A DNA stretch of 64,000 nt, from assembly GCA_964016885.1 (NCBI GenBank), contig OZ024760.1, positions 34,100,001-34,164,000 of the forward strand, written 5' to 3'. This document shows positions 34,800 to 58,222 of the stretch, one piece after another. The notes beneath the pieces were generated by a model that was not told where the DNA came from, ran no database searches, and saw nothing but the letters and a program-made list of their open reading frames with translations. Made by a program: the position numbers and the translations under genes. Origin of the DNA: Eledone cirrhosa (taxonomy: Eukaryota). Positions within the stretch are counted from its first letter, which is position 1, and each line of letters starts with the position of its first letter.

Positions 34800-35146
34800 T
34801 CATATTTCAAACCATTCAGGAGCATGATCAGTGAAGTTGTGGAATTCATCTTTTCCCGATACTAATACAGTGGCTGGGAAAGTACGTGGCCTGTTTGGGT
34901 CTTGGACCGGGTAAGCACTGGTAGAAACATATCGAACGACAAAACCACATCGACGGCGATCAGAAAGGTTTGGTTCACTGCCATGGACTGTTAAGCCATG
35001 ATGTAATGACATTTCACCTGCATTCAGTGGGCATGGCACAGCCTTCTCAACATTGAACAAATTAAAAGGTATTTCTTGATTCGAAGTCAGTAAATTGCCC
35101 TTTTCTTTAGCTTCGGTGTGCTCCAAAATTCCAAATTTGTGGGAAC
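34800..35146 (-). CDS. PhyH-family Fe(II)/2OG dioxygenase, exon 4 (last)
   Basis: ccag acceptor. Encodes GSHKFGILEH...CPLNAGEMSLHHGLTVHGSEPNLSDRRRCGFVVRY...WFEI-stop, with the distal Fe-binding His (HGS) and the 2OG-binding Arg region. Phase matches exon 3. Confidence 0.93.
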
Positions 35147-35413
35147 CTGGACAAATACGGAAAAATAAATAAATAAATGAATAAACAATTGTTTTTGTTT
35201 TTTTTAATTTAAATTGTTTACGTAGCATCGGACGAATTTGAAAGTATGTTTGCTTTTTGTAAAGCTGCCGCAACGCAAGTTAACTAAAAAATATTTGAAT
35301 AAGTCGAGAAACTAACCCCTGGAGACGGAAAAAAGTAAGCAGAACCGTTTGTTGGATTTGAACCGCACATCCATCGTCGTATTCTGGTCGACTGCGATAT
35401 GTTCGTCTCTGGC

Positions 35414-35727
35414 AGTCTGTTAGTCAGGGTCATCTTAACTGACCAGTAAAAACCCATCTCTGGTACTCAATAGTCTGTTAGTTAGGGTCACCTTAGCTGA
35501 GCAGTAAAAACACATCTCTGGTCCTCAACAGTTTGTTAGTCAGTGTCACCTTAGCTGAGCAGTAAAAACTCAGCTCTGGCCCTCAATAGTCTGTTAGTCA
35601 GGGTTACCTTACCTGAGCAGTAAAAACACACCTCTGGCCCTCAATAGTCTGTTAGTCAGGGTTACTTTAGCTGACCAGTAAAAACACATCTCTGGCCCTC
35701 AACAGTCTGTAAGTCAGGGTCACTCGG
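35414..35727. repeat. 58-bp intronic minisatellite (~5 copies)
   Basis: AGTCTGTTAGTCAGGGTCACCTTAGCTGAGCAGTAAAAACACATCTCTGG... recurs at 35472, 35530, 35588 and 35646. Confidence 0.9.
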
Positions 35728-35883
35728 ATACTCGGATCTGTTTTAAACCCCAGTCCACATCTTGCTTCCGTCCTATCATTGACTCCACTCCAAGAATTAC
35801 AATAAACACAACCTGGGAAGTAATCCATCTTTTTGAACCCCGAACAATTAAAATAAAAAATTTTTTTTCCATAACATCTCAAC

Positions 35884-36531
35884 CTTTTACTCCACATATT
35901 AACAGCCACCATGTTGTCTTACTCCACATGTTAACAGCACCATGTCGCCTTACTCCACATGTTAACAACACCATGTTGTCTTACTCCACATGTTAACAGC
36001 GCCATGTTGTCTTACTCCACATGTTAACAGCCCCATGTCGCCTTACTCCACATGTTAACAGCACCATGTTGTTTTACTCCACATGTTAACAGCACAATGT
36101 TGTCTTACTCCACATGTTAACAGCCACCATGTTGTATTACTCCACATGTTAACAGCCACCATGTTGCATTATACCACATGTTAACAGCCACCATGTTGTC
36201 TTGCTCCACATGTTAACAGCCACCATGTTGCCTTACACTACATGTTAACAGCCACCATGTTGCCTTACACAACATGTTAACAGCCATCATTTTGCCTTAC
36301 TCCACATGTTAACAACCACCATGTTGCCTTACACTACATGTTAGCAGCCACCATGTTGCTTTACACTACATGTTAACAGCCACCATGTTGCCTTACACTA
36401 CATGTTAACAGCTTCCATGTTGTCTTACTCTACATGTTACAGCCTCCATGTCATGTTAACAGTCACCATGTTGTCTTCCACTACATGTTAACAGTTACCG
36501 TGTCTTATACTACATGTTAACAGTCACCATG
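35884..36531. repeat. 31-32-bp intronic minisatellite (~20 copies)
   Basis: Unit TTACTCCACATGTTAACAGCCACCATGTTGTC. Confidence 0.92.
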
Positions 36532-36575
36532 TAGTTTAGATTGAGAGAACAATCAGGCGGCGACAGTCTACTTAC

Positions 36576-36664
36576 CTGGAATAACCTTCATACATCCATT
36601 ATCGATATCAGCTTTATCAACAGCAAGCCACACAGTTATTACATCCCCGTCGACACCCCAATAC
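36576..36664 (-). CDS. PhyH-family dioxygenase, exon 3
   Basis: cag/GTAAGT boundaries, 89 nt. Encodes (R)YWGVDGDVITVWLAVDKADIDNGCMKVIP(G), the typical PhyH W-x-A-x-D...NGC...IPGSH motif. Confidence 0.93.
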
Positions 36665-36822
36665 CTGCAAAAACAAATTCAACAGGTTTTTTACAAAATC
36701 TTAACATTTTTTAAACACAATTCGTCACTTAAACACTTTTAACATGAAACCATTTAAAACTGCCCCTGGTTCTATGATACAAATCTATTTCTAAGCTGTC
36801 TGTTTTAAAGTGTATATACAGA

Positions 36823-37152
36823 GTGAAGGTGCGTGGCTTTGTGGTTAGGGTATTCGGCTCACGATTGTAAGGTTGTGAGTTCAACTCCCGACAGCGCGCT
36901 GTGTCCTTCAGCAAGAGACTTTATTTCACGTTACTCCAGTCCACTCAGCTGGTAAAACTGAGTTGGAAGGGCCAGCCTTGCCACATTATCTATAGTTACA
37001 AGGACCAGCCTTGCCACACTGATTCACGCTGAATCTCCCTGAGAACTATATCAAGGGTACACGTGTCTGTGGAATGTTCAGTTATTTGCACGTTAATTTC
37101 ATCTGTTGATCGTATCGACTGGAACACTCCTCGTCGTAACCGACGGGGTGCC
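36823..37152 (+). mobile_element. tRNA-derived SINE, family A
   Basis: A-box-like GTGGCTTTGTGGTTAGG, B-box-like GAGTTCAACTCC and core GTGTCCTTCAGCAAGAGACTTTATTTCACGTTACTCCAGTCCACTCAGCTGG. Related copies at ~41755-41830(-), ~44570-44895(-), ~46036-46310(-), ~47340-47470(+) and ~56481-56750(+). Confidence 0.8.
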
Positions 37153-37547
37153 TCTAATCTTTAGTATATATAGTATTTATCCATCATAGTTTTATGTAAG
37201 AACCTTTGTTACGTTATGTTCCAAACACCAGATTAATAATGGGACAATTAGTTATGTTACTAAATCACTCAAAATTATTTAGAAATCCTATATTAAGAAT
37301 ATAGGAACGAAAGAATAAGCAATGCCAATATCAGATCTGTCAACTCTCCCCGTTCGACGGGGAGATCTCCCACCCCACTTTGGAGTGGGTGAGAGATGTG
37401 AAAATGGGTATAGCTTTTATTATGTAAAATCTCCCCAGTTTGCCTAATTTCTCCCCGTTTTGGGGCACTTTTTTTCATGGTACTCCCCGTTTGGGTTTTC
37501 AGAGGTTGGCAGGTCTGCAATATTAAACAAATGTCAACTTCTCTTAC

Positions 37548-37764
37548 CTGATATCTTGATGCCAAGCAACGTATTGTTTAGCACCGTCTTTTCTAGAAGT
37601 GTCTTTCTCTGGATATTTGCAGATGAAACGAGAGTCCAACACGAAGATGTTATCTCCAAGAATGGTGCGGAGAGGATGTAAAACGTTCCGATGAGCAGCT
37701 AATTTCATCACCCAGGGAAACGTCGTGTGGACATTATGGAGAGAATATTGAGAGTTCTCTTTAC
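37548..37764 (-). CDS. PhyH-family dioxygenase, exon 2
   Basis: tttcag/GTAAG boundaries, 217 nt. Encodes GKENSQYSLHNVHTTFPWVMKLAAHRNVLHPLRTILGDNIFVLDSRFICKYP...YVAWHQDI(R), containing the H-x-D iron motif. Confidence 0.93.
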
Positions 37765-37939
37765 CTGAAAAAGGTATTTATTTATTCATTTAGATTTTTA
37801 ATTATTAAAGCAGTTAATATTCAGATGTTACCTGCTGGAACTACATAGGTGTGAGGCGAAATATCTGAAAGAAAAGACTGATACAGCTTGGTACCAGTCA
37901 TTTTATAACTTATATACACATTATATACACTATGTACAC

Positions 37940-37989
<50 letters not shown>

Positions 37990-38017
37990 ATCAAAAGATG
38001 GTTAAAGGAGTTCCATG

Positions 38018-38088
38018 TATTTTATTATGCGCATTTCAAAAACAAACATCATCATGCAATAATATTTGTGTTTTCATCAGATAAAACA
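38018..38088 (-). ncRNA. Type I hammerhead ribozyme motif (sense to PhyH pre-mRNA)
   Basis: Reverse complement of 38195-38265. Confidence 0.75.
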
Positions 38089-38194
38089 GGAGAACATGAT
38101 ATGAAGGCTAAAAAACACTTGTGGATAGTGCAGTTTTAAATCAACATCACTGCACTATCCACAAGTGTTTTTTAGCCTTCATATCATGTTCTCC

Positions 38195-38265
38195 TGTTTT
38201 ATCTGATGAAAACACAAATATTATTGCATGATGATGTTTGTTTTTGAAATGCGCATAATAAAATA
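38195..38265 (+). ncRNA. Type I hammerhead ribozyme motif
   Basis: TGTTTTAT-CTGATGA-AAA C ACAAATATT...ATGTTTGT T TTT-GAAA-TGCGCA-TA-ATAAAATA. Confidence 0.78.
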
Positions 38266-38386
38266 CATTGAACTCCTTTAACCATCTTTTGATCTTATAT
38301 TATGTATACTCCAGTCCTACAAACTGTAGAGTGCTTCTTATCCGATATCTGCATTGCTTTATTGTACTACAATAAAACTCACCTCC

Positions 38387-38417
<31 letters not shown>

Positions 38418-38609
38418 AAGAGTCGGGATCCTGACGGCTGAGCTCTTGCACACACATACATACACACACATACATACATATATATATAGTGGCTGCCCCT
38501 CGTTATCGAGTATGGCCATTGCACGAGAAGAAAAAAATAATAATAAAAATAATAATAATAACAACAATAATAATAACGACAACAACAACAACAACAATAA
38601 TAATATACA

Positions 38610-38720
<111 letters not shown>

Positions 38721-38728
38721 GATAGCAA

Positions 38729-40135
38729 TTAACAGCGCTGCGATCGAATGTGGTTTTTTAGCTCAGCCAATGATCTAAAATGTCTTGCACAGAGTTGGCA
38801 ACCAAAACATTCACTGGCTGTAGCCGGCTGTGGTTGGAGTTCATGTACTTTTGCATGTCGTTTGAGCCCTCCTGCTGATTTACATTCTCTACTACATGCT
38901 TGGTAAGCATGATGAGTAGCATCTCCAACAACAGCCTGGTAGTCAATCACTGATCTTACTTTATGACTGCGAAGATGACTTTCGAGTCCAGCTCTGCTTA
39001 GGCAGAGTCTCGCACAGACGCTGCATGTCAGCGCCATAGGAGGACCTTCGCCGTCTGGAAATGCAACAGTAATGCCCTTCCTCGCATCCCGCTTTACTTT
39101 CTCGTATGCGATTCGAGATGCCTCAAAGGCAACTTTCCTCTCATATACAGTCTTTCTCTATTTGTTACGATCAGCAGCAACATTTTCCCATGTATCAGCA
39201 GAGATGTTAGCGTCTTTCAAAAAGGCTTTCAACGAATCCTTATACCTCTTTTTTGGTTTATATGGAGGTCGTTTTCCTTTAACTAACTTTCCATAAAAGA
39301 GTTGTTTTGGTATTCTAGAATCCTTACCCTGGCAAGGTGACCACACCAACGGAATCTTTGCTTGAGCACAAAAGCTTCTATACTGTCACACAGAGAGCTT
39401 TCTAAAATCTCGACATCACTGATGTGGTCGCTCCAGTGAACGCCATGGATCCGTCTGAGACACATCTGATGGAAATGCTCCAATTGCTTAAGGTGGTGTT
39501 GATATGTGACCCAGGTCTCGCAGGCATAAAGAAGAGAAGAGAGTACACATGCCTTGTACACATTTACCATTGTCTTCTTGCATATGTCTCGCCGACCCCA
39601 GAGTCGCCTTTCTAGCTTTCCGAAAGCATCACTTGCTTTCCTTATCCTGAGTGAGATTTCATTATCAAGGTTGCTGGATTGGCAGTATCGGTAGAGGGTT
39701 GGACGCCATGCTTTCCAGCATAGTTACGTCCCTTTACGATCTGAGTTCAAATCCCGCCGAGGTTAACTTTGCCTTTCATCCTTACAGGGTCGATAAAATA
39801 AAGTACCAGTAATGCACTGGCCTTGTGCCAAAAGTAGAAACAATTATGAAGATTGCTGTATCGATTGACAGTGCTTCCCAGGTAGACAAACTGATCAACC
39901 ACTCCAAATCGTTTACCATACACATAGATATTTGGTTCACTGTACTGTTTACCAGGGGAAGGTTGGTACATGACGACGGTTTTCTTGAGACTGACAGTCA
40001 ACCCTAGGGCAGTGTAAGCATCAGAAAATGCATTCAAAATGTGCTGCAATAGCACTCTCTGTGTGTACTACAAGATCGCAATCATCTGCATACAAGAGGT
40101 CTCTTATGAGTGATGTAAATACTTTTGTTTTTTGC
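38729..40135 (-). mobile_element. 5'-truncated, frameshifted RTE-clade LINE (RT C-terminal half plus C2H2 tail)
   Basis: Fragments DLLYADDCDLV, GLTVSLKKTVVM, FVYLGS, VYKACVLSSLLYACETW, FHQMCLRRI, RWCGHLAR, RIPKQLFYG...KKRYKDSLK, then C-terminal CSVCARLCLSRAGLESHLRSH. Confidence 0.92.
39676..39842 (+). mobile_element. SINE, family B, inserted into the RTE LINE
   Basis: Contains the B-box GAGTTCAAATCC. Flanked by an imperfect 15-bp TSD: ATTATCAAGGTTGCT (39661-39675) and ATTATGAAGATTGCT (39843-39857). Same family at ~33748-33860 and 60466-60989. Confidence 0.85.
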
Positions 40136-40349
40136 AGCAAATATATATGTATGTATATATATATATATATATTGTTATATTTGGGGAGGGTCATGTTGTT
40201 ATAATATTGCCAGAAATATATAATAAAATACTCACAGAAGCGAAAACCAACCCAACACAAACAATGAGTGTGTTTGTTTCAACAGACGATTTCATATCAA
40301 AAACCTTGCAAAACAAATTCATCGCCATCACAGCCCAAACTTATAGATA

Positions 40350-40380
<31 letters not shown>

Positions 40381-40386
<6 letters not shown>

Positions 40387-40677
40387 AGAAATTAAAAGTT
40401 GGTTAAAAATGTTCCATATATTTTATTATGCGCATTTCGAAAACAACATCATCCTGGGACAAAAATTGTATCATGTTACCTTATTTTATCTGATGAGAAC
40501 ACAATGTTTGTCCCAGGATGATGTTGTTTTCGAAATGCGCATAATAAAATATATGGAACTTTTTTAACCATATTTTAATTTCTTCTTTAATATATACTCC
40601 AGTTCTACCAACTGTTGAGTGCTACTTATCGGATATATGCATAGTTTTATTGTTCTACAATATTACTCACCTTCTTC

Positions 40678-40680
<3 letters not shown>
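40381..40680. mobile_element. Second fold-back pLTR fragment, same family as 37983-38390
   Basis: 40381-40469 is inverted against 40501-40589. The tail is homologous to 38301-38390, and (TA)n lies on both sides. Confidence 0.78.
40482..40551 (+). ncRNA. Type I hammerhead ribozyme motif
   Basis: TATTTTAT-CTGATGA-GAA C ACAATG...TGTTGT T TTC-GAAA-TGCGCA-TA-ATAAAATA. Confidence 0.8.
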
Positions 40681-40719
<39 letters not shown>

Positions 40720-41377
40720 AAAAGTTATGAAACGAAAGGAGCTGTGTGGTTACTAAAAACAAGGTTTAGGATGGTGGTTAGGACGGAACAGGAGGAGAAA
40801 GGAAGAAAGGAGTTTCCATCGTCAGCTGTAAATGTATCCCGAACCGATGTTTCGGCGCTGAATTACAGGACATCGGTGTAGTTCGGGTGCGTCCGAGGCC
40901 TTTTATTAATCAAAAGACCTGGGGGAAAAGGAGACAGAAAGAGAGAAAAAAAAGGAGAGAGAAAAGGAAAGCGAGGGAAAGGAGGAAGAACAGGGGAGGG
41001 GGGGAGATGAGGAGCGAGGAAGAAGGGGAAACATAGTAAAGGAATAGAAGAAAAAAAAGTGAACAGATCCCATCGTGGGAAGACACAGGTGAAAGAAACA
41101 TGCAAAAAAGTAACCGTGGAAAAATAGGGAAAGTAAGTTGTGGCCAACCTGGGAGACTTTAGCCTGGTGGTCAGCTACGACTCAGAGCTGGTATAATCGT
41201 GCTGCCTCTCACATAGACAGGAGAAAGTGAGAGAGTGACACGGGCAACCAAAAGTGAGATAATCCAGAAGGGTTTTTTTTACGCCGGTGGTAAAAACGTG
41301 CCGCAAAGATTGCGGACAGAGAGGCCACCATGGCACGTGTAAACATGTCAACAATCAAAACCGAATGGATGGATAGA

Positions 41378-41444
<67 letters not shown>

Positions 41445-41650
41445 TAACAGATTAAAGTTTAAGCAAAGAATCGTTGCTTTCACCCTTAACGGGATCTTCT
41501 GAAACTAAAAAAGTCAATCTGTGAACGTAGAAGTAAATATTTAAAAAAACGTTGCAACCGAAGGAAGTTGCTCTACGGTTCTTATATATCTGATATATAT
41601 TTATCCTTATCGAGCCCTCTTTGGATTTTAGTCTTCAAATATATTATTAT

Positions 41651-41692
<42 letters not shown>

Positions 41693-41871
41693 GATGATGA
41701 TGATGATGATGATGATGAAGAGAAAGGCAATGACAGATACAGCTTGGCACTAGTGTCTTGTCCAGGAATCGAACTCATGTCCATACGATTGTAAGTCCAA
41801 TACCCTAACCACTAGGCCATGCTCCTTCACCAGCTGTAACAACAACAAGTATTTCTATGGAGGTTACTTAC

Positions 41872-42004
41872 CGATTTCTTCTTCCAATCCATTAAAGTTC
41901 TGCTGTAAGTCTTTGGCTTCAGTTTCAGTGAGAACCTGAAGTGCTGTGACGTAACCATTTCTGTTGAAGTCATCGTCGAGTTTTGATGAAACCTTGTCGG
42001 CCAT
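41872..42004 (-). CDS. PhyH-family dioxygenase, exon 1 (start)
   Basis: ATG at 42004. Encodes MADKVSSKLDDDFNRNGYVTALQVLTETEAKDLQQNFNGLEEEI(G), with the F-x-x-x-GY PhyH N-terminal motif and a GTAAGT donor. The four exons sum to 786 nt (261 aa plus stop) with consistent phases. Confidence 0.9.
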
Positions 42005-42024
42005 TACAAGTTATCGAACGATGC

Positions 42025-42680
42025 GATGGTTTGATGGTTGATGGTTTGATGATGTCGTCTGTGGGTTTGGTGGTTTGGTGGTTTATTTGATTGGTGGTTT
42101 TTGTCTGTGTTTAGTGGGTTGGTGGTTTGGTGGGTTGGTGGTTTGATGATGTCGTCTGTGGGTTTGGTGGTTTGGTGGTTTATTTGATTGGTGGTTTTTG
42201 TCTGTGCTTAGTGGGTTGGTGGTTTGGTGGTTTGGTGGTTTGATGATGTCGTCTGTGGTTTGGTGGTTTGGTGGTTTATTTGATTGGTGGTTTTTGTCTG
42301 TGCTTAGTGGGTTGGTGGTTTGGTGGTTTGGTGGTTTGATGATGTCGTCTGTGGGTTTGGTGGTTTGGTGGTTTATTTGATTGGTGGTTTTTGTCTGTGC
42401 TTAGAGGGTTGGTGGTTTGGTGGTTTGGTGGTTTGATGATGTCGTCTGTGGGTTTGGTCGTTTGGTCGTTTATTGGATTGGCGGTTTTTGTCTGTGCTTA
42501 GTGGGTTGGTGGTTTGGTGGGTTGGTGGTTTGATGGTTTGGTGGTTTGATGAGGTCGTCTGTGGGTTTGGTGGTTTTTGTCTGTGGCTGGTGGTTTCGTG
42601 GTTTGGTGGTTAGTGGGTTGGTGGGTTGGCGGGTTGGTGGGTGATGTTTTGTGTCTGTTAGATTGATGGTTTGATGGTTG
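42025..42680. repeat. GGTTT/GGTGGTTT-rich compound repeat with ~90-100-bp higher-order units
   Basis: Recurring GATGATGTCGTCTGTGGGTTTGGTGGTTTGGTGGTTTATTTGATTGGTGGTTTTTGTCTGTGCTTAGTGG. It starts about 20 nt upstream of the PhyH ATG. Confidence 0.9.
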
Positions 42681-42686
42681 TATACA

Positions 42687-42752
42687 AACTGACTTTGGAG
42701 TGATTCTTATGACAGCCGAATATATATAAGCGTGGGAAGATCCAAAACTAAG

Positions 42753-42818
<66 letters not shown>

Positions 42819-42931
42819 GAATGGGCGTACGTACACACATACTTACACTCACACACGTGTTTGTAAATACCTATATTGACATATGTGACTAATTGAGATC
42901 ATGTGACCATGTGACTATATGACCACGTGAC
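42687..42931 (-). promoter_or_regulatory. Candidate PhyH core promoter with upstream E-box cluster
   Basis: Minus-strand TATATATA (42721-42728) lies ~30 nt before an Inr-like TCAGTT (42687-42692). kB-like GGGAAGATCC at 42734-42743. CACGTG/CATGTG boxes at 42854, 42900, 42908 and 42924. Motif matches only. Confidence 0.35.
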
Positions 42932-43062
42932 TCTGTTTCCGTGAGTGTTGAGTGTTGTTTAGTCTAACACCCGAACTTGTTTGGATATTAAACTGCAAAA
43001 AAATAATTAAAAAATGAAAAAAAAAGAATAAAGTTTTACTGGATAAGGAAGATAGCAGGAAA

Positions 43063-44502
<1,440 letters not shown>

Positions 44503-45086
44503 ATATGGTACACCAACTAGAGAGAAATAAGAGAGAAAATATGAGTGGTAGTAGTTGTTGTTGTTGTTGACGGACCTCCGTCTGTTGCAACGACAAGTGT
44601 TTTAGTTGTCCAGTTCTCAGGGAGATTCATTGTGATAGAGTGTTTGACAAGGCTGAACATACCACAGCTACGTGTACTCCACAACGTAGTTCTCAGGGAG
44701 ACTCAGTGTGATAGAGTGTGTGTCAAGGCTGAGCATACCACAACCACGTGTACTCACAACGTAGTTTTCAATTACGGAAATAACTCATTTTTCCCCAGCT
44801 CAGATGACTGGGGCAACATAAACAAAAAAGTGTCTTGCTTAAGGACCCAATGTGCCACCAGGAATCAAACTCACATCTTTACGATCGTGAGCTGAACACA
44901 GAGGCGTAACTAGGGTGTGGCAAGCATGGCACGTGCCATGAGCGCCACATGGACTAGGAGCACGTTCTATTAAAGTCAAATAAACCTCGTCAGAGAGTAA
45001 AAACAGAAACTCCTTCAGATGTATGATCTGTCTCTATCATGGGTGAACACTATGGTGACTGGGTCATTAAACTATTTATATAAATT

Positions 45087-45580
45087 ACTAGCAATGGTAC
45101 CCGGCATTGCACGGGATAAGGTATTTTGGAACGCGGGCCGCCAACAGACGTAATCGTGGAAAAACTGCATGCCTGGACAATATGTAAAGAAAATAAACCG
45201 AATACTCTGATGGCTGGATAATCTTTAAGATTTTCCTCGATGAAGCAGAAAAAATGCAGGTTTTCACCTAGGGGATCAAGAAAATGCATAATATGCTTTG
45301 AAATTTCGGGAAAATCGGCTAGACGTAACGCCTCAAAAAAGCCCTAAAAAGCTGAAAAAATGAAGTTTCTCACCTAATGCGGGCCCTAGGCCATAAAGAA
45401 AGTTGGATTTTCTTTGCTCACGGTATGAAGAAGAGACTGAGTAATACATAGTTACAATTTCAAGGAAATCGGTCTGACAACGCCTCAAAAAAAACCCTAA
45501 AAAGCTGGGGAAAAACGCAGTTTTTCACCTAATGTGGGCTCTAGGGGATCAAAAAGTTGAATTCTTTTCCCTAGTCTCTG
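45087..45580 (+). mobile_element. Helentron/HINE-like non-autonomous element fragment
   Basis: Terminus ACTAGC...ACCCGGCATTGCACGGG and internal ~170-bp subrepeats (AACGCCTCAAAAAA..CCCTAAAAAGCTG). A possible related 3' part lies at ~60235-60420. Confidence 0.45.
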
Positions 45581-46729
45581 GCTGAACATCTTAACCACTG
45601 AGCCACGAGGAAAGCAACTGTGAAGCGGTGTAGGGTAGGATCAGTCAGAGTTACTTCCTCTTGTCACCTGAGCATGTCATCTAAAGAAGTTTATCAGATT
45701 ATATTCCAAGTTAAAAGATGCTTTGTTTAATTTGATAACAACCAGTCGTGTCTACCAGATGTCTAAGGAGATTGCTAAGACGTTTGCACTGTTCCAGGAC
45801 ATTCTTTCATTCTTTCGTTCCTTTATTCCTGTTATTGTTTTCAGTCATTAAACTGCAGCCATGCTGGAGCAACCACAGTCTTAACTCTTAACGTCCGGTA
45901 CCGCATGAAACCACATTAGCAAGTCAGCAAGATTAGAAAAGTTGAAAAAATCCCTATGAGTGCACCACGTTAATAATCTATGTCTTCTGAAACTACATAG
46001 ATGTGAATAATCATTTTTTTGTTGTTTTTAATTCCTTTGGCTCCCCGTGGGGTATTCTAAAGTCAGAAGGCTGGTTAGGCCCGTACTTATCCCAGTTTCA
46101 TGGCATGAAGCGACTGAGAGTACAAGACTTCCACTGGACAGGACGCGAGTCCATCGCAGGGTTAAACCCCCAGCTATTGCTGGTACTCATTTTCAGCTAA
46201 GCACACTGGAGCAACGTGAAATGAAGTGTTTTGCTAAAGAACACAACCCAGCCGAGGAATCAAACCCACTATATTATGATCGTAAGACCAACACTCTTAC
46301 CACTGGGCCACGTTTAAACCATTACAAAGGAAATTTTAACTTTGTATTAAATCATCATTACGTCTACGATGTCTTTGTTTATAATAGGTTCTCAACCGTC
46401 TTTAGAGATAGCTGTATAGAATTCCCTCTTATGACCGGCCTACATCTATAGGTCAGATTGACATCTTACTCCCTGCCCTTGTTCTACAGGCAAGTTCAGC
46501 CACCCCACCCCCACCCGCCGCTATGAAGGAATTTAACTGCGTTTACAAAATCTTTGACAATTCCTCCGATAAAAACAACTTTGAGAACTGTTTGACACGA
46601 CACTACTGCGACGCTCTCATTGCATGCCCATATATGGAATTACTTCTTGATAAGTTCTGCCAGGCTACTGCCGTCCTAACAAAGCTGTCGAAACGGCCGA
46701 AGCTCATCTGTCGGGGTCCTGACTCTTTT

Positions 46730-46829
<100 letters not shown>

Positions 46830-46847
46830 GTGTGTCTGTGTATGTAT

Positions 46848-46880
<33 letters not shown>

Positions 46881-47614
46881 ATGTCTATGTAGAGGGAGAG
46901 GAAGAGAGAGAGAACAATAGGAAAAGTCTGGAGCCAAGAATAATGGATATTCAAGTGCAAAAGAAAAGAAATCGATAATGAGAGGAAAAAAATATATAAA
47001 AAGTGAGAAAGTCAATGATTCACGTCAGAATTTATTCCTGAATTTTATAAAAGAAACATTTTACATCCTTTTCCCCCAGAATATATTTATTATGATAATA
47101 ATAATAATAATTGATAAGGAAAACTAAATAGAAATATTTGTTGACAAAACCTGAAGTTGTTGCCGGAAAACAAATATCTATGATTGGATTTAATAAAAGA
47201 CAGAAGAACTCTGTCTTGGAGTTCATATTTTAGTAGAAGACCGCATCACATTGAAGAGTTGTTTCACCAATACTGGACAGGTAGACCATGAGTTTCTCAT
47301 TTACAAAGGTAATTGGACACTTTATGGGTGGTTTCATTTCCTTGGCTTTGTGCGATAGGTTCACAATCGTAAGGTCAGGAGTTCGATTCCCTGCACCGTT
47401 TGGTACGTTGAGTCCTTGAGCAAGACACTTTATTTCATGTTGCTCCAGTACACTCAGCTGGCAAACATGAGGTGCAGTATCACTGGTGCCAAGATGTTCA
47501 CTGTAATTCTTATCTGTAGGTACTCTGTAACAAACGGACATATGCTATATTTATGTGTAGATACTCTGTAACAAACGGAACATACACATTGTACTCTATA
47601 TTTCTTATCTGTAG

Positions 47615-47711
47615 GCCTCGTACAAGAAATGGAAGCTGTGCTGTTTATTTTCTACAAAACACCAGCCAAAGTATCTGTCAAATTTGGAAAATACTTCAAA
47701 ATGTACACATC
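47615..47711 (+). other. Candidate upstream exon of ACOD1 (5'UTR or N-terminal extension)
   Basis: tttcttatctgtag acceptor and GTAAGT donor. Spliced to the tgcag acceptor ending at 47955, it reads openly ASYKKWKLCCLFSTKHQPKYLSNLENTSKCTHHSSS into MLHTQ. Confidence 0.4.
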
Positions 47712-47966
47712 GTAAGTAAAGCCAAAATACTTTTATATCCATCACTATCACTATCATCATTATAACCATCATCATCATCATCATCATCATCGGCATCATC
47801 ATCATCACCCACTTCATCGTCGTTTTACGTACCTCGACATTTCTATGTCTGCCAGTAAAGACACTATAAACGTTTTAAATTAACAAACCTGTATTTTAGA
47901 TATTTCTTTCTTCTGAATCATTGCAGTTAACTCTAAAGAAACGTTATACTTGCAGACTCTTCATCG

Positions 47967-48469
47967 ATGTTACACACCCAAAGTGTTACCTCACTGTTTG
48001 CAGAACTCATCAGCAACTCAAACCTAAGCAATCTGTCAGAGATAGTACAGACAAGAAGCAAAAGGATGATTTTGGACACTTTAGGTGTCGGCATCCTTGG
48101 TTTTCACAGTGAAACAACAAAAACTGTAAATTCATGGGCTGAAAACCTCGGTTACTTCGAAATACACGAAAGCAGTGTAGGAAAACCCCCAAATGTGGTG
48201 GTATGGGGTAGTTCTAATAAAAGAGCTCCTATAGGCCTCGCTACTTACCTGAATGGAATCAGCGTCCATTCAATAGATTTTGATGACACCTGGCACCCAG
48301 CCACCCATCCAAGTGGACCTGTTTTACCTGCTGTTTTGTCATTGTCTGAGTATATGACCGGTTCTTTTCGGCCAACTTCAGACGAACTTTTGGTGGCCTA
48401 CAATATCGGAATCCAAACGCAGGGTCTCCTTCTACACAGTTCAACAAAGTCCAAAAATATCCCTGAAAG
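47967..48469 (+). CDS. ACOD1: Cis-aconitate decarboxylase (IRG1, MmgE/PrpD family), first main coding exon
   Basis: RSKRMILDTLGVG, NGISVHSIDFDDTWHPATHPSGPVLPA and LLVAYNIGIQTQG closely match vertebrate ACOD1 as recalled. The 3' boundary is inferred from phase and homology, and the donor reads TTAAGT. Confidence 0.92.
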
Positions 48470-48724
48470 TTAAGTAATATTTTCCTCGTCCTCCTTTTTT
48501 TCTTTGCTTTTTACTTTCATTGTTTCTTTCTTTTGTCTTCTTTTCCTTCTTTTTCCTCTTTTTTTCTTTGTAAATAATTTGTTACACCCTTAATTATATC
48601 AACCAACAATCCTACTTTACTTTATCCATGGTAAATTTCTACAGTTGGATGCCATTCCTAATGCAAACCACATTTACAGTGTGTGCTGGGTGCTTTTTAT
48701 CATGACTCCTTCATGACCACTTTA

Positions 48725-48887
<163 letters not shown>

Positions 48888-48910
48888 GTGTGTTTATATA
48901 TATAAATATA

Positions 48911-49929
<1,019 letters not shown>

Positions 49930-49990
49930 ATATATATATATATATTCATTCAAAATATTAACAAAAATAGAACTTCATTGTGATCAAGTA

Positions 49991-50057
49991 TATTTTATTA
50001 TACATATTTCAGAGGTACTGAGCTAACTTCAACAGTACGTCCTCATCAGATAAAATA
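49991..50057 (-). ncRNA. Type I hammerhead ribozyme motif in Penelope 3' pLTR
   Basis: Reverse complement of 54715-54781. Confidence 0.78.
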
Positions 50058-52024
50058 AGATGATGCATGACATACCCTAACTTAGTAGATGGTTAAGATC
50101 CAGTCATGGTAGTGAGTAAGATATGACAAAACTCAATAGTTATATACCTTAAGATTGATACATGAAAAAACTTACATATAATACATATAGTACAGAGGGT
50201 GCGTGTAAGAAAGCTTAAAAATACATAACAGTAATTTACATAACTGTTAGAGATTCAAATAATTATTTAAGAAAGAGGAAAGTAAAAAGACAGAGAGAAA
50301 ACATATGAGGGGAAAATATAGCTAGAAGAGGTATAGAGAGCAAAGGAAAAATTGATCAAGGAAAGGGAGACAAAGAGGACTAATTATAATTATAGGGAGG
50401 GATGTATAGTTATGTATGATATATATCCATACACAACTATACATTTGGGCATAGCTATGCGATAGAGTAAACTCAAATCATTGAATTATTGAATTATCTA
50501 GAAATATTCATCAATCTAAATCCTAAATATAACTGGGTGTAATCAATAAGGGTTAATTTCCTCAGTTAATTAGATATATATACTATCCAAATGTGTCCGG
50601 TTGACCGTTAACTTTCAAATCATTTAAGTTAGTTAAGAGTAATGAATTAATTAAAGTGTATAATATTTCAGGCTATAAAAGTTTATAAATATCTGTATTA
50701 ATATTAAAGTATACTATCATATTTAATTTATAAAATCATATTTTATGAATTCATATTTAAACTATTTGTGAACATGAGAGAGAAAACATGCTATTTTTCA
50801 TCTTGTCGAAGGTAAATCTTGATAATTTTATTATAATATATTTAATTATTATATTGAAGATATAATTAAAAAAAAAAATTTTAGATTAACAATTAGAATG
50901 CCTTAAAGCATCAAAAGGCCTTATAATTAAACTTAAAAAGTTTATTATTAAATTAGCTATATGCATTTGTCTAAATATAAACAAAGATTATATTGTGTAA
51001 AGATTAAGATGATACCTATCATTTATATATAACATAATATAATACAATAAATAAGTTACTGATAATATTGTTAAAAATTAAGGTTTTAGATCAATTATTA
51101 TAATAAGGTCACGTAACACATATATACTATAAATATACAAGTCAAACTTCTTGAATCATACGGATAATAATACGATTCAAAGTAAAATAATGAATTGTCT
51201 GCGATCTTAGATTTTCTTTATAAATTTATATAGTAGTGTAATGTGTCTGTAAACATGAGAAAGAGAAAGCCTAAGGATTTCATTGACCCGAAGGTAAGCC
51301 AAATTTAATTAAATTAAATTAAATAATAATCATTATATAACTTAGAAAATTTAAAAAGTATTTAGAGCATATTTAACGATTATAACACTAGAAAATCATT
51401 AAAGTATCCAAAGTACTTATCAATAATAATCGTTATATAACTTAGAGAGTTTAGAAAATATTTAGAAAGTCATTAAAGTATTTAAAGTACTTATAAATGT
51501 AATTAGAAGCATGTTATTATACTAGATATACGGATTTGTTCAAATATAAATAGAGTATTCAGATATTAGTGATCGATATACATATAATAAATAGTACAAT
51601 CATTGTTAGTAATGTTATAATTGAAGTTTTACATCAAGATAAGTGGAAAAAAAGATTGACGACTAGTATCGTGTGTGATGCATATACCGTAAATATATAT
51701 AAATAAAAATATATAAATCAAACTTCCTGAATCTTAAAACATACTCCAGATAAGTAAATATACAAAAACATAAATGCATGAATGATTTACGGTACATTAT
51801 AATTGTTAAGCGTATAAGCCATATATTAAAAAAATATATACAAGAATCCCAGTAAAAAATTAAATATATCTTAACAATCAAAAGGTATGCACATTCCTCA
51901 AGAGATCATGTTAACCAAAAATATGTTTATATACCTAAATAGGACCCTTTAATCTAACATTAATCATATCATAAAAGAATTAAAAGATAAAAATTATTAA
52001 AGTTTTATAATCTGTTATATCGTT

Positions 52025-52852
52025 TTAGGTACACAGTTGATAAGAGACATCAAAAATTAGAACGTGGTTATTTAGTGTTTTTTTCCTGACTTTTTGCGAG
52101 GCTTGGAATGTAGACAGAGCTTTATGAAGGCAGTTTGAGAATAATTCACTCTTTTTGTTAATTAAATTTTCACAATCAGTAATTATTAAAAGGGTCTCCA
52201 TAGTACAGAGGTTGCAGTTAGGTGATATTGACGAATTCAAATAAATTCTACTATTACATAACTTCGCCCAAGAAATCGAGTATTTTAAGTTTTTGTCTTT
52301 TAATGACCATATAAGTTGTGATAAAGAAGTCGAAGATTTCCTATTAGGATTCGAAAAAGTGCATTTGTGATTCGCAAATCTAGATTTAAATGTCGAAGAA
52401 GTTGCACCTATATAGTTGTATGTGATGTTATTTGCTTTTACTGTGCATTTATATACCAAATTGCAATCAAGACAGTTATTTTGCAGAGGGCAATCAGGTC
52501 TATTTCTACAATTACACTTCGATTTATTGTTATTACTATAAATTGTACTATTTACATTAGCATTATTAATATTCCGAAATCTTCTATTGATACTGTTACT
52601 GTTATTTCTAGTGTCAATATTGTTAGTGTTATTATATTCATTATCGTTAAATGTATGTTGATTTAGAATTCTACTATTTATTTTAGCGGTGTTTTGGGCC
52701 ATATTCATAGTTGTAGAATAAGAAAGCTTAATTGTGTGTCTGTTAAATACGGAACGGTATTTATGTTGAATGGAGAAAGATTTATCTAAAGCTTTAAAGA
52801 ATAGATTTGCGAGTGGAGTTTTTATTGCTACAGAAGCCGGGGGGCAAACCAT
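52025..52852 (-). pseudogene. Penelope linker plus GIY-YIG endonuclease remnant (RT missing)
   Basis: FNRHTIKLSYS, CNCRNRPDCPLQNNC, VYKC...YIGATSSTFKSRFANH, CNLCTME...LINKKSELFSNCLH. A 1-nt frameshift falls at the upstream IWFAPP motif (~52840). Confidence 0.9.
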
Positions 52853-54714
52853 ATAACTGATTTAGTTCTGATTTTTTTTCCCCGATTTATTTCCGGTAGT
52901 GGTGTTTGTATTAACATTTTTGGAATCTCGTTTATACATGTTAATCTTATTAGGATTATAATTCAAATTATTATCCATATATTCTATATTATTTTTATAA
53001 CCTGCCTTTCGTTACTATAAGTTACTGATAATTTTTAACAATATTATCAGTAACTTATTTATTGTATTATATTATGTTATATATAAATGATAGGTATCAT
53101 CTTAATCTTTACACAATATAATCTTTGTTTATATTTAGACAAATGCATATAGCTAATTTAATAATAAACTTTTTAAGTTTAATTATAAGGCCTTTTGATG
53201 CTTTAAGGCATTCTAATTGTTAATCTAAAATTTTTTTTTTTAATTATATCTTCAATATAATAATTAAATATATTATAATAAAATTATCAAGATTTACCTT
53301 CGACAAGATGAAAAATAGCATGTTTTCTCTCTCATGTTCACAAATAGTTTAAATATGAATTCATAAAATATGATTTTATAAATTAAATATGATAGTATAC
53401 TTTAATATTAATACAGATATTTATAAACTTTTATAGCCTGAAATATTATACACTTTAATTAATTCATTACTCTTAACTAACTTAAATGATTTGAAAGTTA
53501 ACGGTCAACCGGACACATTTGGATAGTATATATAACTAATTAACTGAGGAAATTAACCCTTATTGATTACACCCAGTTATATTTAGGATTTAGATTGATG
53601 AATATTTCTAGATAATTCAATAATTCAATGATTTGAGTTTACTCTATCGCATAGCTATGCCCCAATGTATAGTTGTGTATGGATATATATCATACATAAC
53701 TATACATCCCTCCCTATAATTATAATTAGTCCTCTTTGTCTCCCTTTCCTTGATCAATTTTTCCTTTGCTCTCTATACCTCTTCTAGCTATATTTTCCCC
53801 TCATATGTTTTCTCTCTGTCTTTTTACTTTTTCTTTCTTAAATAATTATTTGAATCTCTAACAGTTATGTAAATTACTGTTATGTATTTTTAAGCTTTCT
53901 TTTTTAATTATATCTTCAATATAATAATTAAATATATTATAATAAAATTATCAAGATTTACCTTCGACAAGATGAAAAATAGCATGTTTTCTCTCTCATG
54001 TTCACAAATAGTTTAAATATGAATTCATAAAATATGATTTTATAAATTAAATATGATAGTATACTTTAATATTAATACAGATATTTATAAACTTTTATAG
54101 CCTGAAATATTATACACATTAATTAATTCATTACTCTTAACTAACTTAAATGATTTGAAAGTTAACGGTCAACCGGACACATTTGGATAGTATATATAAC
54201 TAATTAACTGAGGAAATTAACCCTTATTGATTACACCCAGTTATATTTAGCATTTAGATTGATAATTATTTCTAAATAATTCAATAATTAAATGATATGA
54301 GTTTACTCTATCGCATAGCTATGCCCAAATGTATAGTTGTGTATGGATATATATCATACATAACTATACATCCCTCCCTATAATTATAATTATTCCTCTT
54401 TGTCTCCCTTTCCTTGATCAATTATCCTTTGCTCTCTATACCTCTTCTAGCTATATCTTCCCCTCATATGTTTTCTCTCTGTCTTTTTTCTTTCCTCTTT
54501 CTTCAATAATTATTTGAATCTCTAACAGTTATGTAAATTACTGTTATGTATTTTTAAGCTTTCTTACACGCACCCTCTGTACTATATGTATTATATGTAA
54601 GTTTTTTCATGTATCAATCTTAAGGTATATAACTATTGAGTTTTGTCATATCTTACTCACTACCATGACTGGATCTTAACCATCTACTAAGTCAGGGTAT
54701 GTCATGCATCATCT

Positions 54715-54781
54715 TATTTTATCTGATGAGGACGTACTGTTGAAGTTAGCTCAGTACCTCTGAAATATGTATAATAAAATA
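54715..54781 (+). ncRNA. Type I hammerhead ribozyme motif (sense to ACOD1 pre-mRNA)
   Basis: TATTTTAT-CTGATGA-GGA C GTACTG ttgaagttagct CAGTAC C TCT-GAAA-TATGTA-TA-ATAAAATA. Confidence 0.8.
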
Positions 54782-54920
54782 TACTTGATCACAATGAAGT
54801 TCTATTTTTGTTAATATTTTGAACGAATATTAATAACTCCGGAAAACCATAACTGTTGAGTGCTTCCAATCTATTGTAAAACTAATTCTTTGATTTATTC
54901 ATCGAACCTCGTTTAACCTT

Positions 54921-55040
<120 letters not shown>

Positions 55041-55196
55041 GTGTGTGTGTGTGTGTTTATATATAAATATATATACATCACCACTATTATAACTCTTGAC
55101 AAAAAAAGAAAAGGGAGAGTACTCCCAAAATAATTATTGGTGTTTAAAATATTTTCAGATATAGATGTCAATGTGAAACATTTTCTTTTATTTCAG

Positions 55197-55408
55197 GTTT
55201 CACCCGCCAGCTGTGGTTGGAGTGATGGGATCAGCTGCTGCTGCTGCAAGATTGCTGCAGCTGGGTCCATGCAAAACAAAACATGCGCTAGCCATTGCAG
55301 CCTCTTTTGCTGGTGCACCAATGGCAAATGCTGGCACACAGTGCAAACCGTTACACGTAGGAAAATCTGCACGTTTTGGCCTGGAGGCTGCTTTAATGGC
55401 AGACAAAG
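55197..55408 (+). CDS. ACOD1: Cis-aconitate decarboxylase, second coding exon
   Basis: tttcag/GTAAGA boundaries, 212 nt. Encodes (R)FHPPAVVGVMGSAAAAARLL...AGAPMANAGTQCKPLHVGKSARFGLEAALMADK(G). Confidence 0.95.
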
Positions 55409-56069
55409 GTAAGAGATAGAACATAGCAGCCTTACTGACTTTTTCAGGTTCAAAATTGTTTTATTGTTAGGAAGGGCATCCAGCCATAGAAGTCAGTGTC
55501 GGATTTAGGACAAATGAAGCCCTGTGCTAGTTAAGTTATGAGGCTCCATACTTGGGCCCTGAAGGGGGTAGGCCCGGTAGGCCTACACAGACAGTCATCA
55601 GGAAGTTGGGCCCCTTCATGGCCAAGGGGACCCTGTACTTAAGCACACCTGAACACAGGGGTGAATCCAGCACTGATAGAAGTCCTGCGAAAATGACTTG
55701 CATGGGTTTGACATGTTGTCCTGAACTGAGATCAGACTAAATATGTGACCACAGCCTGCTTGTACAGTCCATTTTTAGATTGCTTTCTACAGCTCAATGC
55801 CCTTCCTAACACCAACCACCTTATAGTATTCACTGGGGGCATTTTATTGTATCACAAACACCAGCGCAACCACAGTTTGTTAATTTAAATGGTCGTAGTA
55901 TCTTTACTGGTGATCAAATCATTGTGAAAATTGGCTGTAAACTAAAGTAGAGATTTTAATATTTAATGTAATGCAGTCATAATGTTGTTTTATACATTTC
56001 AAGAATGTCTTGTTAATGTGGTTTTGTGGCGTACAGGGCATTAAGAGTTAAAGTTGTTTGTACTTACAG

Positions 56070-56401
56070 GAATGGAAGGGAATGAAAACATTCTTGACAC
56101 AGTGTCTGGTTTTGGTGTATTTTTTGAAGACTATTCCCCAAAAAAGTTGTTAGATGTTGCTCTAAACAACCAACAGTATATTCTTCACGATCAAGATGTC
56201 GCCATCAAACGATTCCCAGCTCATTTAGGCATGCATTGGGCTATTGATGCAGCTATGGAAGCCCGACAACAAATGACTGGGGTATTCAGCTCTGAAATAC
56301 CATATAAAGAAATCAAAGCTATCCAAATTATTGCCCCCACATCAAAATATATTGACAGACCATTTCCAAAATCTCAGCATGAAGCAAGACACTCATTTCA
56401 G
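56070..56401 (+). CDS. ACOD1: Cis-aconitate decarboxylase, third coding exon
   Basis: ttacag/GTGAGT boundaries, 332 nt. Encodes GMEGNENILD..GFG..QDVAIKRFPAHLGMHW...KYIDRPFPKSQHEARHSFQ. Confidence 0.95.
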
Positions 56402-57059
56402 GTGAGTTAATTAGTTAGATTTCTTAATTAACTTTTTAAATGATTTTAAAAGAAAATTGGTGTGTTAATTCAAATATCTAGTGGAGGCATGTGACCCAGT
56501 GGTAAGTGTGTTGGACATACAATCATTATGTCGTAGGTTCGATTCCTGGACTGGATTGCCTGTTGTGTTGTTGAGCAAAACATTTCATTTCATGTTGCTC
56601 CAGTATACTTAGCTGAAAATGAGTACCAGTAATAGCTTGGACTGGTGTCATCCTGTCCATGGGGGGGAGTCATGTACTCTCAGTCGCTTCATGCTATGAA
56701 ACCGGAATAAGCTCCAGCCTGATGATCCTTCTGGCTTAAGACGACTTCAGACTTTTTTTTTACACTTTACTGGACAGATTGTTGTAAAAATGTTAATAAA
56801 TTAGAGTAAAGACTTTAATATTTATTGTGATGCAGTCATTTTTTACAAAATGTTTCTTATGCAAGTTTGTTTATTAACTCTTAAAATCCTGTAAAGATTC
56901 AAAAGAAAATATCTAAAAATGGGTTAATTCAACTACTTATAGTATCTTTACTTATGGATAGATCATTGTCACCATCATCCCCCACTACCACTACCATCAT
57001 TACCACCTCCGTCATCATTATCATGAACAACATCATCTTCACCACAGTGTAGTGTGTAC

Positions 57060-57502
57060 ATTTTATTCTGAAACCAACGCTATCACTTTACAGAGCGTAC
57101 TGGGTGCATTATATGGTAGCAGCAACACTTCCTCTTTACAGAGTGTACTGGGTATATTTTATCATGGCACCAGCACTACCACTTTACAGAGTGTACTGGG
57201 TGTATTTTATCATGTCACCAACACTACCACTTTACAGAGTGGACTGGGTGTATTTTATCATAACACCAACACTATCACTTTACAGAGTATACTGGGTGTA
57301 TTTTATCATAACACCAACACTATCACTTTACAGAGTGTACTGGGTGTATTTTACCATGACACCAACACTACCACTTTACAGGGTGGACTGGGTGTATATT
57401 ATCATGGCACCAACACTACCACTTTACAGAGTGTACTGGGTGTATTTTATCATAACACCAACACTACTACTTTACAGAGTGTACTGGGTGTATTTTATGA
57501 TG
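57060..57502. repeat. 48-bp intronic minisatellite (~9 copies)
   Basis: Unit ACTTTACAGAGTGTACTGGGTGTATTTTATCATAACACCAACACTACC. Single-copy relatives at ~48665-48725 and ~55810-55870. Confidence 0.9.
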
Positions 57503-57605
57503 GTGCAGTTATTATATAGATTTATGTCTAAATAAGATCCACCATAATTTCAATGTCTCTTTTTTGTTTTAGCTTTTTTCAACAACTTTCTGTTTGTTAT
57601 CTTTA

Positions 57606-57831
57606 TTAACTTTTAATATCCTGTAATGACTGAGCAGAAAATATCTAAAAATAGGCCTGTTAATTTAAATATTTATAGTATTTTCACTGGTGGACAGGTC
57701 ATTGGGAAAATTTACTGTAAACTAAAGTCTTTACTTTAATTTTCAAGGCAATGCAGTCATAGTGCTGTTTTATAATATTCAAAATTGTCGTTGCTAATGC
57801 TGTTTTATGTGGTACAGGATATTAAGTGTTG
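57606..57831. mobile_element. MITE with TTAA-type termini
   Basis: TTAACTTTTAATATCCTGTA...TACAGGATATTAAGTGTT. Related pieces at ~55877-56051, ~56765-56960 and ~45880-46010(-). Confidence 0.6.
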
Positions 57832-57850
57832 CTATCAACTTTTATTGTAG

Positions 57851-58222
57851 TTCAATGTTGCTTCGACATTACTTGACGGAACAATGAGCCCAGAGAGTTA
57901 CACTTCGGGACATCACTCCAGACCAAAGTTGAAGACTCTTCTAGAAAAATGTCATTTATTTAGAAAAAAAGACAATATAGCAAACTTTAACAGAATGTAT
58001 GTTGAAGTAATTATTACCTTAACTAATAACAAGGTGTATAGAGGTCGTTGTGATACACCTTATGGCCATTGGCGGAAGCCTTTGTCAGACATTGATGTCC
58101 AGCGGAAATTTCTCAGTAACACAAAATCTCTTCCGACAGATGTTTCTGAAGCCATCATTCACTCAGTGGTGGGTTCATCAAAAAACTCAATAGAAGAAAT
58201 TTTAACCTTGTTGAAATACTGA
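57851..58222 (+). CDS. ACOD1: Cis-aconitate decarboxylase, last coding exon
   Basis: tttattgtag acceptor, phase 0. Encodes FNVASTLLDG...DNIANFNRMYVEV...CDTPYGHWRKPLS...KFLSN...LLKY-TGA. Total CDS is 1419 nt (472 aa). Confidence 0.95.
   Translation, partial: FNVASTLLDGTMSPESYTSGHHSRPKLKTLLEKCHLFRKKDNIANFNRMYVEVIITLTNNKVYRGRCDTPYGHWRKPLSDIDVQRKFLSNTKSLPTDVSEAIIHSVVGSSKNSIEEILTLLKY

Follow-up and report, generated by a model that had tools for sequence, protein, structure and literature searches.

Positions 34,100,001 to 34,164,000 of contig OZ024760.1 of the octopus Eledone cirrhosa (assembly GCA_964016885.1), a stretch of 64,000 nucleotides referred to below as the window, carry two divergent genes: a homologue of the itaconate-forming enzyme IRG1/ACOD1 and a PhyH-family dioxygenase dependent on Fe(II) and 2-oxoglutarate (2OG). 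Both are intact and retain their catalytic residues, and record numbers indicate that they have stayed linked in cephalopods, in most gastropods and in jawed vertebrates. The two probably form a conserved, functional immune enzyme pair, and functional co-regulation of some kind is very likely. We give a probability of about 45% to the more specific reading that both are induced together as an immune module, with itaconate or a direct derivative of it being oxidised by the dioxygenase.

Linkage of the two genes across animals

Linkage was judged by the order of accession or locus numbers together with scaffold identity rather than from coordinates, and orientation from the Eledone genome only. 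The comparison covered 37 species for which scaffold data and records of either gene were at hand; Geotrypetes and Leptobrachium, without scaffold data, and single-gene species were excluded. The numbers were 1 to 6 apart in 18 of the 37. Nine of these are molluscs (Octopus bimaculoides, O. vulgaris, Argonauta, Patella caerulea, Lottia, Haliotis rufescens, Babylonia, Batillaria and Nucella) and nine vertebrates (Chiloscyllium plagiosum, C. punctatum, Hemiscyllium, Acipenser ruthenus, Xenopus laevis, X. tropicalis, Ranitomeya imitator, Pseudophryne and Mixophyes). Examples are XP_014779083/084 in O. bimaculoides, ESO94484/485 in Lottia, SNE40_004624/623 in Patella and XP_043561177/176 in C. plagiosum; one of the 18 pairs lies on a scaffold of just 0.71 Mb. 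The genes shared a scaffold without near-consecutive numbers in another 11 species, namely O. sinensis, P. vulgata, H. rubra, H. asinina, H. cracherodii, Biomphalaria glabrata, Hyperolius, Gastrophryne, Anomaloglossus, Dendropsophus and Leptodactylus. Different scaffolds were found in the remaining eight (B. pfeifferi, Elysia, Bulinus, Physella, Candidula, Huso, Polyodon and A. sinensis), several of them fragmented or partly listed. The synteny between ACOD1 and the PhyH clade is stronger than the initial annotation, made from the window alone, had expected.

The vertebrate partner of the dioxygenase is IRG1L; the mammal-type paralogue IRG1/ACOD1 lay on another scaffold in 5/5 species. Joint amplification of the two genes is seen in four species: X. 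laevis (OCT67397-67413), X. tropicalis and A. ruthenus have interleaved copies, and in Pseudophryne each gene forms tandem arrays. In the available passages of a preprint (bioRxiv 10.1101/2022.06.17.496652), a gene labelled '2Fe (ii) oxy' is syntenic to paleo-IRG1 (pIRG1) and IRG1L; octopus, PhyH and dioxygenase are not mentioned in them.

Structure of the two genes

The dioxygenase gene has four exons with GT-AG at every junction and encodes 261 amino acids (aa) in 786 nt with zero internal stops (Table 1). Pfam PhyH was assigned by domain search, and the metal triad is H113-Q-D115 plus H201, which agrees with the intact 261-aa HQD...H enzyme originally described. The sequence contains no obvious targeting peptide. 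A remnant of a long interspersed nuclear element (LINE) with C2H2 fingers lies inside intron 1 (38732-40278).

The ACOD1 gene contains both the N- and C-terminal MmgE/PrpD domains (Pfam). Read from the ATG at 47967, with a first segment 47967-48469 and the last three exons of Table 1 (55197-55408, 56070-56401, 57851-58222), it encodes 472 aa, and the distance between the two start codons is 5963, the approximately 6 kb of the initial annotation. An in-frame exon further upstream can be spliced to an acceptor at 47956, and its translation is similar to the N-terminal end of the O. bimaculoides protein of 521 aa; a candidate first exon of seven codons would bring the protein to 515 aa. Judged from these exons, the ACOD1 start is likely 47288 rather than 47967, at 5284 bp from the dioxygenase ATG; of the two start codons proposed before, only that at 42004 would thus stand. 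The resulting N-terminal extension of 44 aa, including the predicted first exon, is basic and acid-poor, with 7 K, 1 E and 13 S/T.

Eight active-site positions are invariant alignment columns in 26/26 IRG1/ACOD1 sequences, the window protein included; we take them to be the human active-site residues D93, T97, H103, H159, K207, K272, H277 and Y318. The O. sinensis orthologue aligned with the human structure at an E value of 1e-119. Within the animal IRG1 clade the window protein grouped with O. bimaculoides, then with gastropods and oyster. By this grouping, the gene is a mollusc pIRG1, co-orthologous to vertebrate IRG1/ACOD1 and IRG1L; the earlier term ACOD1 orthologue holds for clade and active site and needs this refinement. 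Zebrafish IRG1L forms itaconate in vitro, and oyster pIRG1 is inducible and enriched in haemocytes. One ACOD1 intron harbours (48900-54835) a mariner-like remnant and an AT-rich element with inverted repeats of 802 bp and 414 bp, presumably Penelope-like by its anatomy.

Relatives, residues and predicted fold of the dioxygenase

One search returned 37 relatives with 48-82% full-length identity, from cephalopods, gastropods, amphioxus, sharks, sturgeons, a cyprinid and amphibians plus a few unnamed sequences; the closest was the O. sinensis orthologue at 82%. In a quick tree with one representative per species, excluding partial or mis-spliced models, 24 animal dioxygenases formed one clade (Shimodaira-Hasegawa-like approximate likelihood ratio test, SH-aLRT, 99), split into molluscs and chordates and separate from PHYHD1, a point that the initial annotation had left to a phylogeny. 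Among bacterial sequences, identity is about 40% for the nearest. IRG1 is reported from the same lineages, molluscs and chordates, in the available passages of bioRxiv 10.1101/2022.06.17.496652.

H113, D115 and H201 and the 2OG-binding K94 and R212 are invariant in 51/51 aligned sequences. A further six residues (H54, D88, R90, D229, R232 and R234) are invariant in 24/24 animal sequences, compared with 0-15% of 27 bacterial relatives. R90 aligns with the glutamate of SyrB2 WRTEFFPK, and a carboxylate rather than an amine substrate would therefore fit. If these residues line the pocket, they would suggest a conserved acidic substrate.

The predicted model of the O. sinensis orthologue (predicted local distance difference test, pLDDT, 92) has the double-stranded beta-helix PhyH fold. 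It matched ThoJ with Z 26.4 (root-mean-square deviation 2.3 over 222 aligned residues), PAHX with Z 24.2 (2.3 over 218) and SyrB2 with Z 24.1. ThoJ (6ZYK/6ZYL) and SyrB2 are the best matches by sequence (profile E 1.7e-38) as well as by fold. They are, however, bacterial natural-product enzymes of 19-28% identity, and SyrB2 is a halogenase without the metal-binding Asp. A SyrB2-type halogenase was rejected, with HQD, not Ala/Gly, present in all sequences and TIGR01762 scoring 72 bits against a cut-off of 226. PHYHD1 and PHYH (PAHX) share the PhyH fold and the HxD...H triad, with local similarity only (E 2e-13 and 3e-10); both identities were rejected, given the separate PHYHD1-like (C23) and PHYH-like (C1) loci of Eledone and the distinct clade in the tree. 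PHYHD1 itself demethylates 2'-O-methyl nucleosides according to the passages available. Among the database names borne by clade members, 'L-threonyl-carrier 4-chlorinase-like' and hypophosphite dioxygenase (HtxA), the latter is an automatic annotation.

A 594-aa match from sturgeon is not an ACOD1 fusion; this Acipenser sinensis model joins a NEMO/TNIP-like coiled coil to the dioxygenase, and hints at an NF-kB regulator as a further neighbour there. X. laevis BAN13408, 'Phytanoyl-CoA dioxygenase like protein', is 57% identical to the window dioxygenase and is probably the XPhyH-like of Naora 2013. The passages available on later work treat XPhyH-like as PHYHD1, the identity rejected above.

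Expression during infection

In the accessible part of a zebrafish Shigella infection data set (PMC6980646), irg1l and zgc:174917 rose with log2 fold changes (log2FC) of 5.81 and 5.68, in rows 6 and 8 of 23,516, with phyh (-0.26) and phyhd1 (-0.03) unchanged. The same table gives increases of 6.04 for si:ch211-153b23.3, 4.05 for.4 (YrdC) and 3.08 for.5. Its authors label zgc:174917 PHYHD1-like. By elimination, this gene is the probable zebrafish orthologue of the clade, being the third PhyH gene and carrying a label common among clade members. The co-induction anticipated by the initial annotation is seen in zebrafish to the extent that this orthology is right. In oyster, a 'hypophosphite dioxygenase-like' contig had a log fold change of +3.34 one day after bacterial challenge, according to the part of PMC4133350 available, and XPhyH-like is reported second-hand from Xenopus immune cells in passages of PMC12709175, PMC5469729, PMC10445729 and PMC6212643. 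Immune-linked expression is thus reported for XPhyH-like and zgc:174917, and the passages give neither a substrate nor a link to IRG1L.

GLOD5 and a Salmonella operon

On one contig, GLOD5 (10257-11304, minus strand) lies downstream of, and tail-to-tail with, bird-type IRG1L; the dioxygenase is not present in that 12-kb stretch. The best non-human structure match of GLOD5 was Salmonella STM3117 (28/50 residues in one exon, E 8e-14), which in the passages seen of bioRxiv 10.1101/648865 is the fourth, uncharacterised gene of the itaconate-induced operon STM3120-3117. A GLOD5-like gene is thus found both in that operon and at the IRG1L locus. The operon differs in degrading itaconate via CoA esters and in having four genes, none of them a dioxygenase. 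As a lead from one contig and a widespread family, the match may point to itaconate independently of the dioxygenase.

Surroundings of the gene pair

The initial annotation saw no other host genes in the window, which splice models, Pfam, open reading frame (ORF) and tRNA screens bore out. No third host gene was seen, the remaining long frames being satellite- or transposon-derived; among 12 further ORFs of the window the only Pfam matches were to a zinc finger of LINE type and two that fell below threshold, and a tRNA search of the window gave none. Tandem satellite fills positions 1-29300 (about 29 kb) and includes a block in inverted orientation at around 8.8-16.5 kb. Between the genes, three E-box/CLEAR-like motifs occur in 33 bp (42899-42931), out of five matches across 29-64 kb; the triplet forms a degenerate repeat and may have arisen by chance. 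Mammalian Acod1 is induced by TFEB.

Genome-wide comparisons used the 3.0-Gb assembly. A second copy of the region lies about 10 Mb away (C21:24,241,500-24,262,000) with exons 98-100% identical; it comprises ACOD1 and dioxygenase exons 1-3, without exon 4 and much of the intronic inserts, and is either an unpurged haplotype or a recent segmental duplication. Three contig sets of one sample behaved as DNA and resolved neither splicing nor copy number. Screening of 100 kb on either side by ORF inspection found an MFS transporter, which we take from its motif to be monocarboxylate-transporter-like, as the nearest recognisable gene leftward (C21:34,054,000-34,083,000); its distance from the stop codon of the dioxygenase is about 52 kb.

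In an exon-level search giving lower bounds, matches to the YrdC, DJ-1/GAT and glyoxalase families were all on other contigs. The YrdC-like and GLOD5-like genes, reported as neighbours elsewhere, sit on contig C2 in Eledone, a genome in which the ACOD1-dioxygenase pair has stayed together elsewhere. A second, non-canonical YrdC-domain gene (C2:148,322,900-148,331,000) has a same-strand membrane exon upstream; its resemblance to carboxylate transporters of the GPR1/FUN34/YaaH type (Atlas score 0.90) is no more than a lead. This YrdC-domain gene, unlinked to the pair here, may be the counterpart of the infection-induced zebrafish si:ch211-153b23.4.

Table 1. Exons of the gene pair and adjoining features, in window positions
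Feature	Positions	Strand	Basis
Dioxygenase exon 1, ATG at 42004	41872-42004	-	splice model
Dioxygenase exon 2; YSLHNVH, LDSRFICK, WHQD (H113, D115)	37548-37764	-	splice model, alignment of relatives
Dioxygenase exon 3	36576-36664	-	splice model, alignment of relatives
Dioxygenase exon 4; H201, S203, R212, RPR motif, stop	34800-35146	-	splice model, Pfam, alignment
Divergent intergenic region, mostly simple and dispersed repeats	42005-47287		sequence inspection
ACOD1 candidate first coding exon, 7 aa, phase 0	47288-47308	+	weak similarity to O. bimaculoides N-terminus, donor site; inferred
ACOD1 upstream exon; basic, Ser/Thr-rich, targeting-peptide-like	47615-47711	+	O. bimaculoides match
ACOD1 exon with ATG 47967 and DFDDTWHPATH	47956-48469	+	splice model, Pfam
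ACOD1 exon; RFHPP, KPLH	55197-55408	+	splice model, Pfam
ACOD1 exon; KRFPAH, YIDRP	56070-56401	+	splice model, Pfam
ACOD1 last exon, stop	57851-58222	+	splice model, Pfam
AT-rich intronic element, long inverted repeats, 278-aa frame; not part of the gene pair	49937-54835		no Pfam family at threshold

Discussion

Under the itaconate-oxidation reading, immune signals would switch on both genes. The pIRG1/ACOD1 protein, predicted to enter mitochondria via its N-terminal extension, would decarboxylate cis-aconitate to itaconate, as expected from family biochemistry, and the dioxygenase, without an obvious targeting peptide, would work in the cytosol with Fe(II), O2 and 2OG. It might there oxidise the exo-methylene or an allylic carbon, giving an itatartarate- or 2-hydroxyparaconate-like product that would disarm or re-arm the electrophile; this last step is the weakest of the scheme. 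Such an oxidation would parallel that by the fungal P450.

Several observations weigh against this scheme. The substrates of PhyH-fold enzymes are very diverse, and the nearest structures, ThoJ, PAHX and SyrB2, use other molecules. Itaconate may instead bind at the co-substrate site of the dioxygenase, by analogy with 2OG dioxygenases such as TET2 that it inhibits according to the passages available. Linkage was not seen in 6/6 heterobranch snails (five on different scaffolds, one on the same chromosome about 1000 accessions apart), and in three sturgeon/paddlefish assemblies linkage was not seen among the matches listed. Amniotes and named bivalves, which have IRG1L/pIRG1, were not among the 37 dioxygenase matches, a low-sensitivity search that does not establish absence from amniotes, bivalves or ecdysozoans; itaconate producers may thus manage without the dioxygenase. 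No MmgE/PrpD gene was found near bacterial relatives of the dioxygenase in 40 GTDB loci (0/40), nor a relative of the dioxygenase in 80 ACOD-like metagenome loci (0/80). On the side of expression, zgc:174917, a probable orthologue only, decreases under metal exposure (PMC11475140), a mussel haemocyte supplement of differentially expressed genes contains IRG1 and no phytanoyl- or hypophosphite-labelled gene (PMC7773633), and the passages available of PMC6401078 mention IRG1 alone.

The linkage, co-amplification and co-induction would be explained equally well by a conserved, co-regulated module whose dioxygenase has some other substrate, a small acid or an amino-acid-like molecule, the two genes having an inducible control region in common but not a pathway. 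We consider this possible if somewhat doubtful: the nearest folds use peptides, carrier-bound amino acids, proline or ectoine, and the neighbouring YrdC-like si:ch211-153b23.4, induced as given above, has no evident itaconate chemistry, yet the GLOD5/STM3117 match connects a second neighbour to itaconate handling, and the dioxygenase is linked solely to the mitochondria-targeted paralogue and never, in the five species, to IRG1. That the genes were merely never separated, as inherited microsynteny without a functional tie, is unlikely. The movement of the YrdC-like and GLOD5-like genes to C2 while the pair remained, the joint amplification in frogs and sturgeon and the matching top-ten induction in zebrafish all speak against it, even if the linkage was lost in heterobranchs and bilaterians have retained a few hundred neighbour pairs of unrelated genes. 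No obvious functional clustering was seen in the passages available of bioRxiv 10.1101/2022.06.17.496652, which favours such microsynteny.

Least probable is a role of itaconate as regulator, occupying the 2OG site to tune the dioxygenase during infection without being its substrate; the inhibition of TET2 lends itself to this, and co-induction would put both in the same cells, but an approximately 50-fold induction of an enzyme alongside its own inhibitor would be uneconomical. A bacterial operon as origin of the pair was rejected on the 0/40 and 0/80 counts and the heterogeneous neighbours of the bacterial relatives (64 ORFs scanned).

By analogy, the pair may work like a fungal itaconate cluster or like viperin (RSAD2)-CMPK2, being a member of neither. 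Fungal clusters (Ustilago tad1/adi1/cyp3/itp1/mtt1; Aspergillus terreus cadA/mttA/mfsA/cypC) likewise link an itaconate-forming decarboxylase physically to an oxygenase; their oxygenase is a P450 instead of an Fe/2OG enzyme, and no counterpart of their linked regulator or mitochondrial carrier was found by ORF inspection of 100 kb on either side of the octopus pair. Viperin and CMPK2 are head-to-head, co-induced animal immune enzymes of antiviral nucleotide chemistry with long-kept linkage. Divergent arrangement, for our pair seen in the Eledone genome only, and linkage over long evolutionary distances, for our pair judged from record numbers, are common to both systems, whereas the shared pathway is proven for viperin-CMPK2 and only inferred for IRG1-dioxygenase. 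Animal CAD was acquired independently of the fungal one, according to passages of bioRxiv 10.1101/2022.06.17.496652.

A wider picture, which we put forward tentatively, is that bilaterians inherited an infection-induced itaconate cluster (IRG1L, dioxygenase, GLOD5, YrdC-like and GAT-like) making further metabolites, of which the octopus would keep the two-gene core and of which mammals would have lost the branch with IRG1L. The initial annotation knew of no described animal pairing of this kind. That statement is qualified by the '2Fe (ii) oxy' synteny label and by viperin-CMPK2. No paper in the literature searched, subscription papers being outside its coverage, connects this dioxygenase with itaconate. 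The synteny has been glimpsed before; the co-amplification, the co-induction and the pathway reading appear to be undescribed.

Animals seldom have metabolic gene clusters. An orphan enzyme that has stayed beside IRG1 since the mollusc-vertebrate split, co-amplified and apparently co-induced with it, comes with a short list of candidate substrates. If the itaconate-oxidation reading is true, the database names halogenase, hypophosphite dioxygenase and PHYHD1-like, which mislead, would be corrected and GLOD5 would gain a functional lead. No itaconate-oxidising enzyme would have been described from animals before this dioxygenase, and its product would be a new immunometabolite, defining a new animal immunometabolite pathway of relevance to disease in fish, frogs and shellfish.

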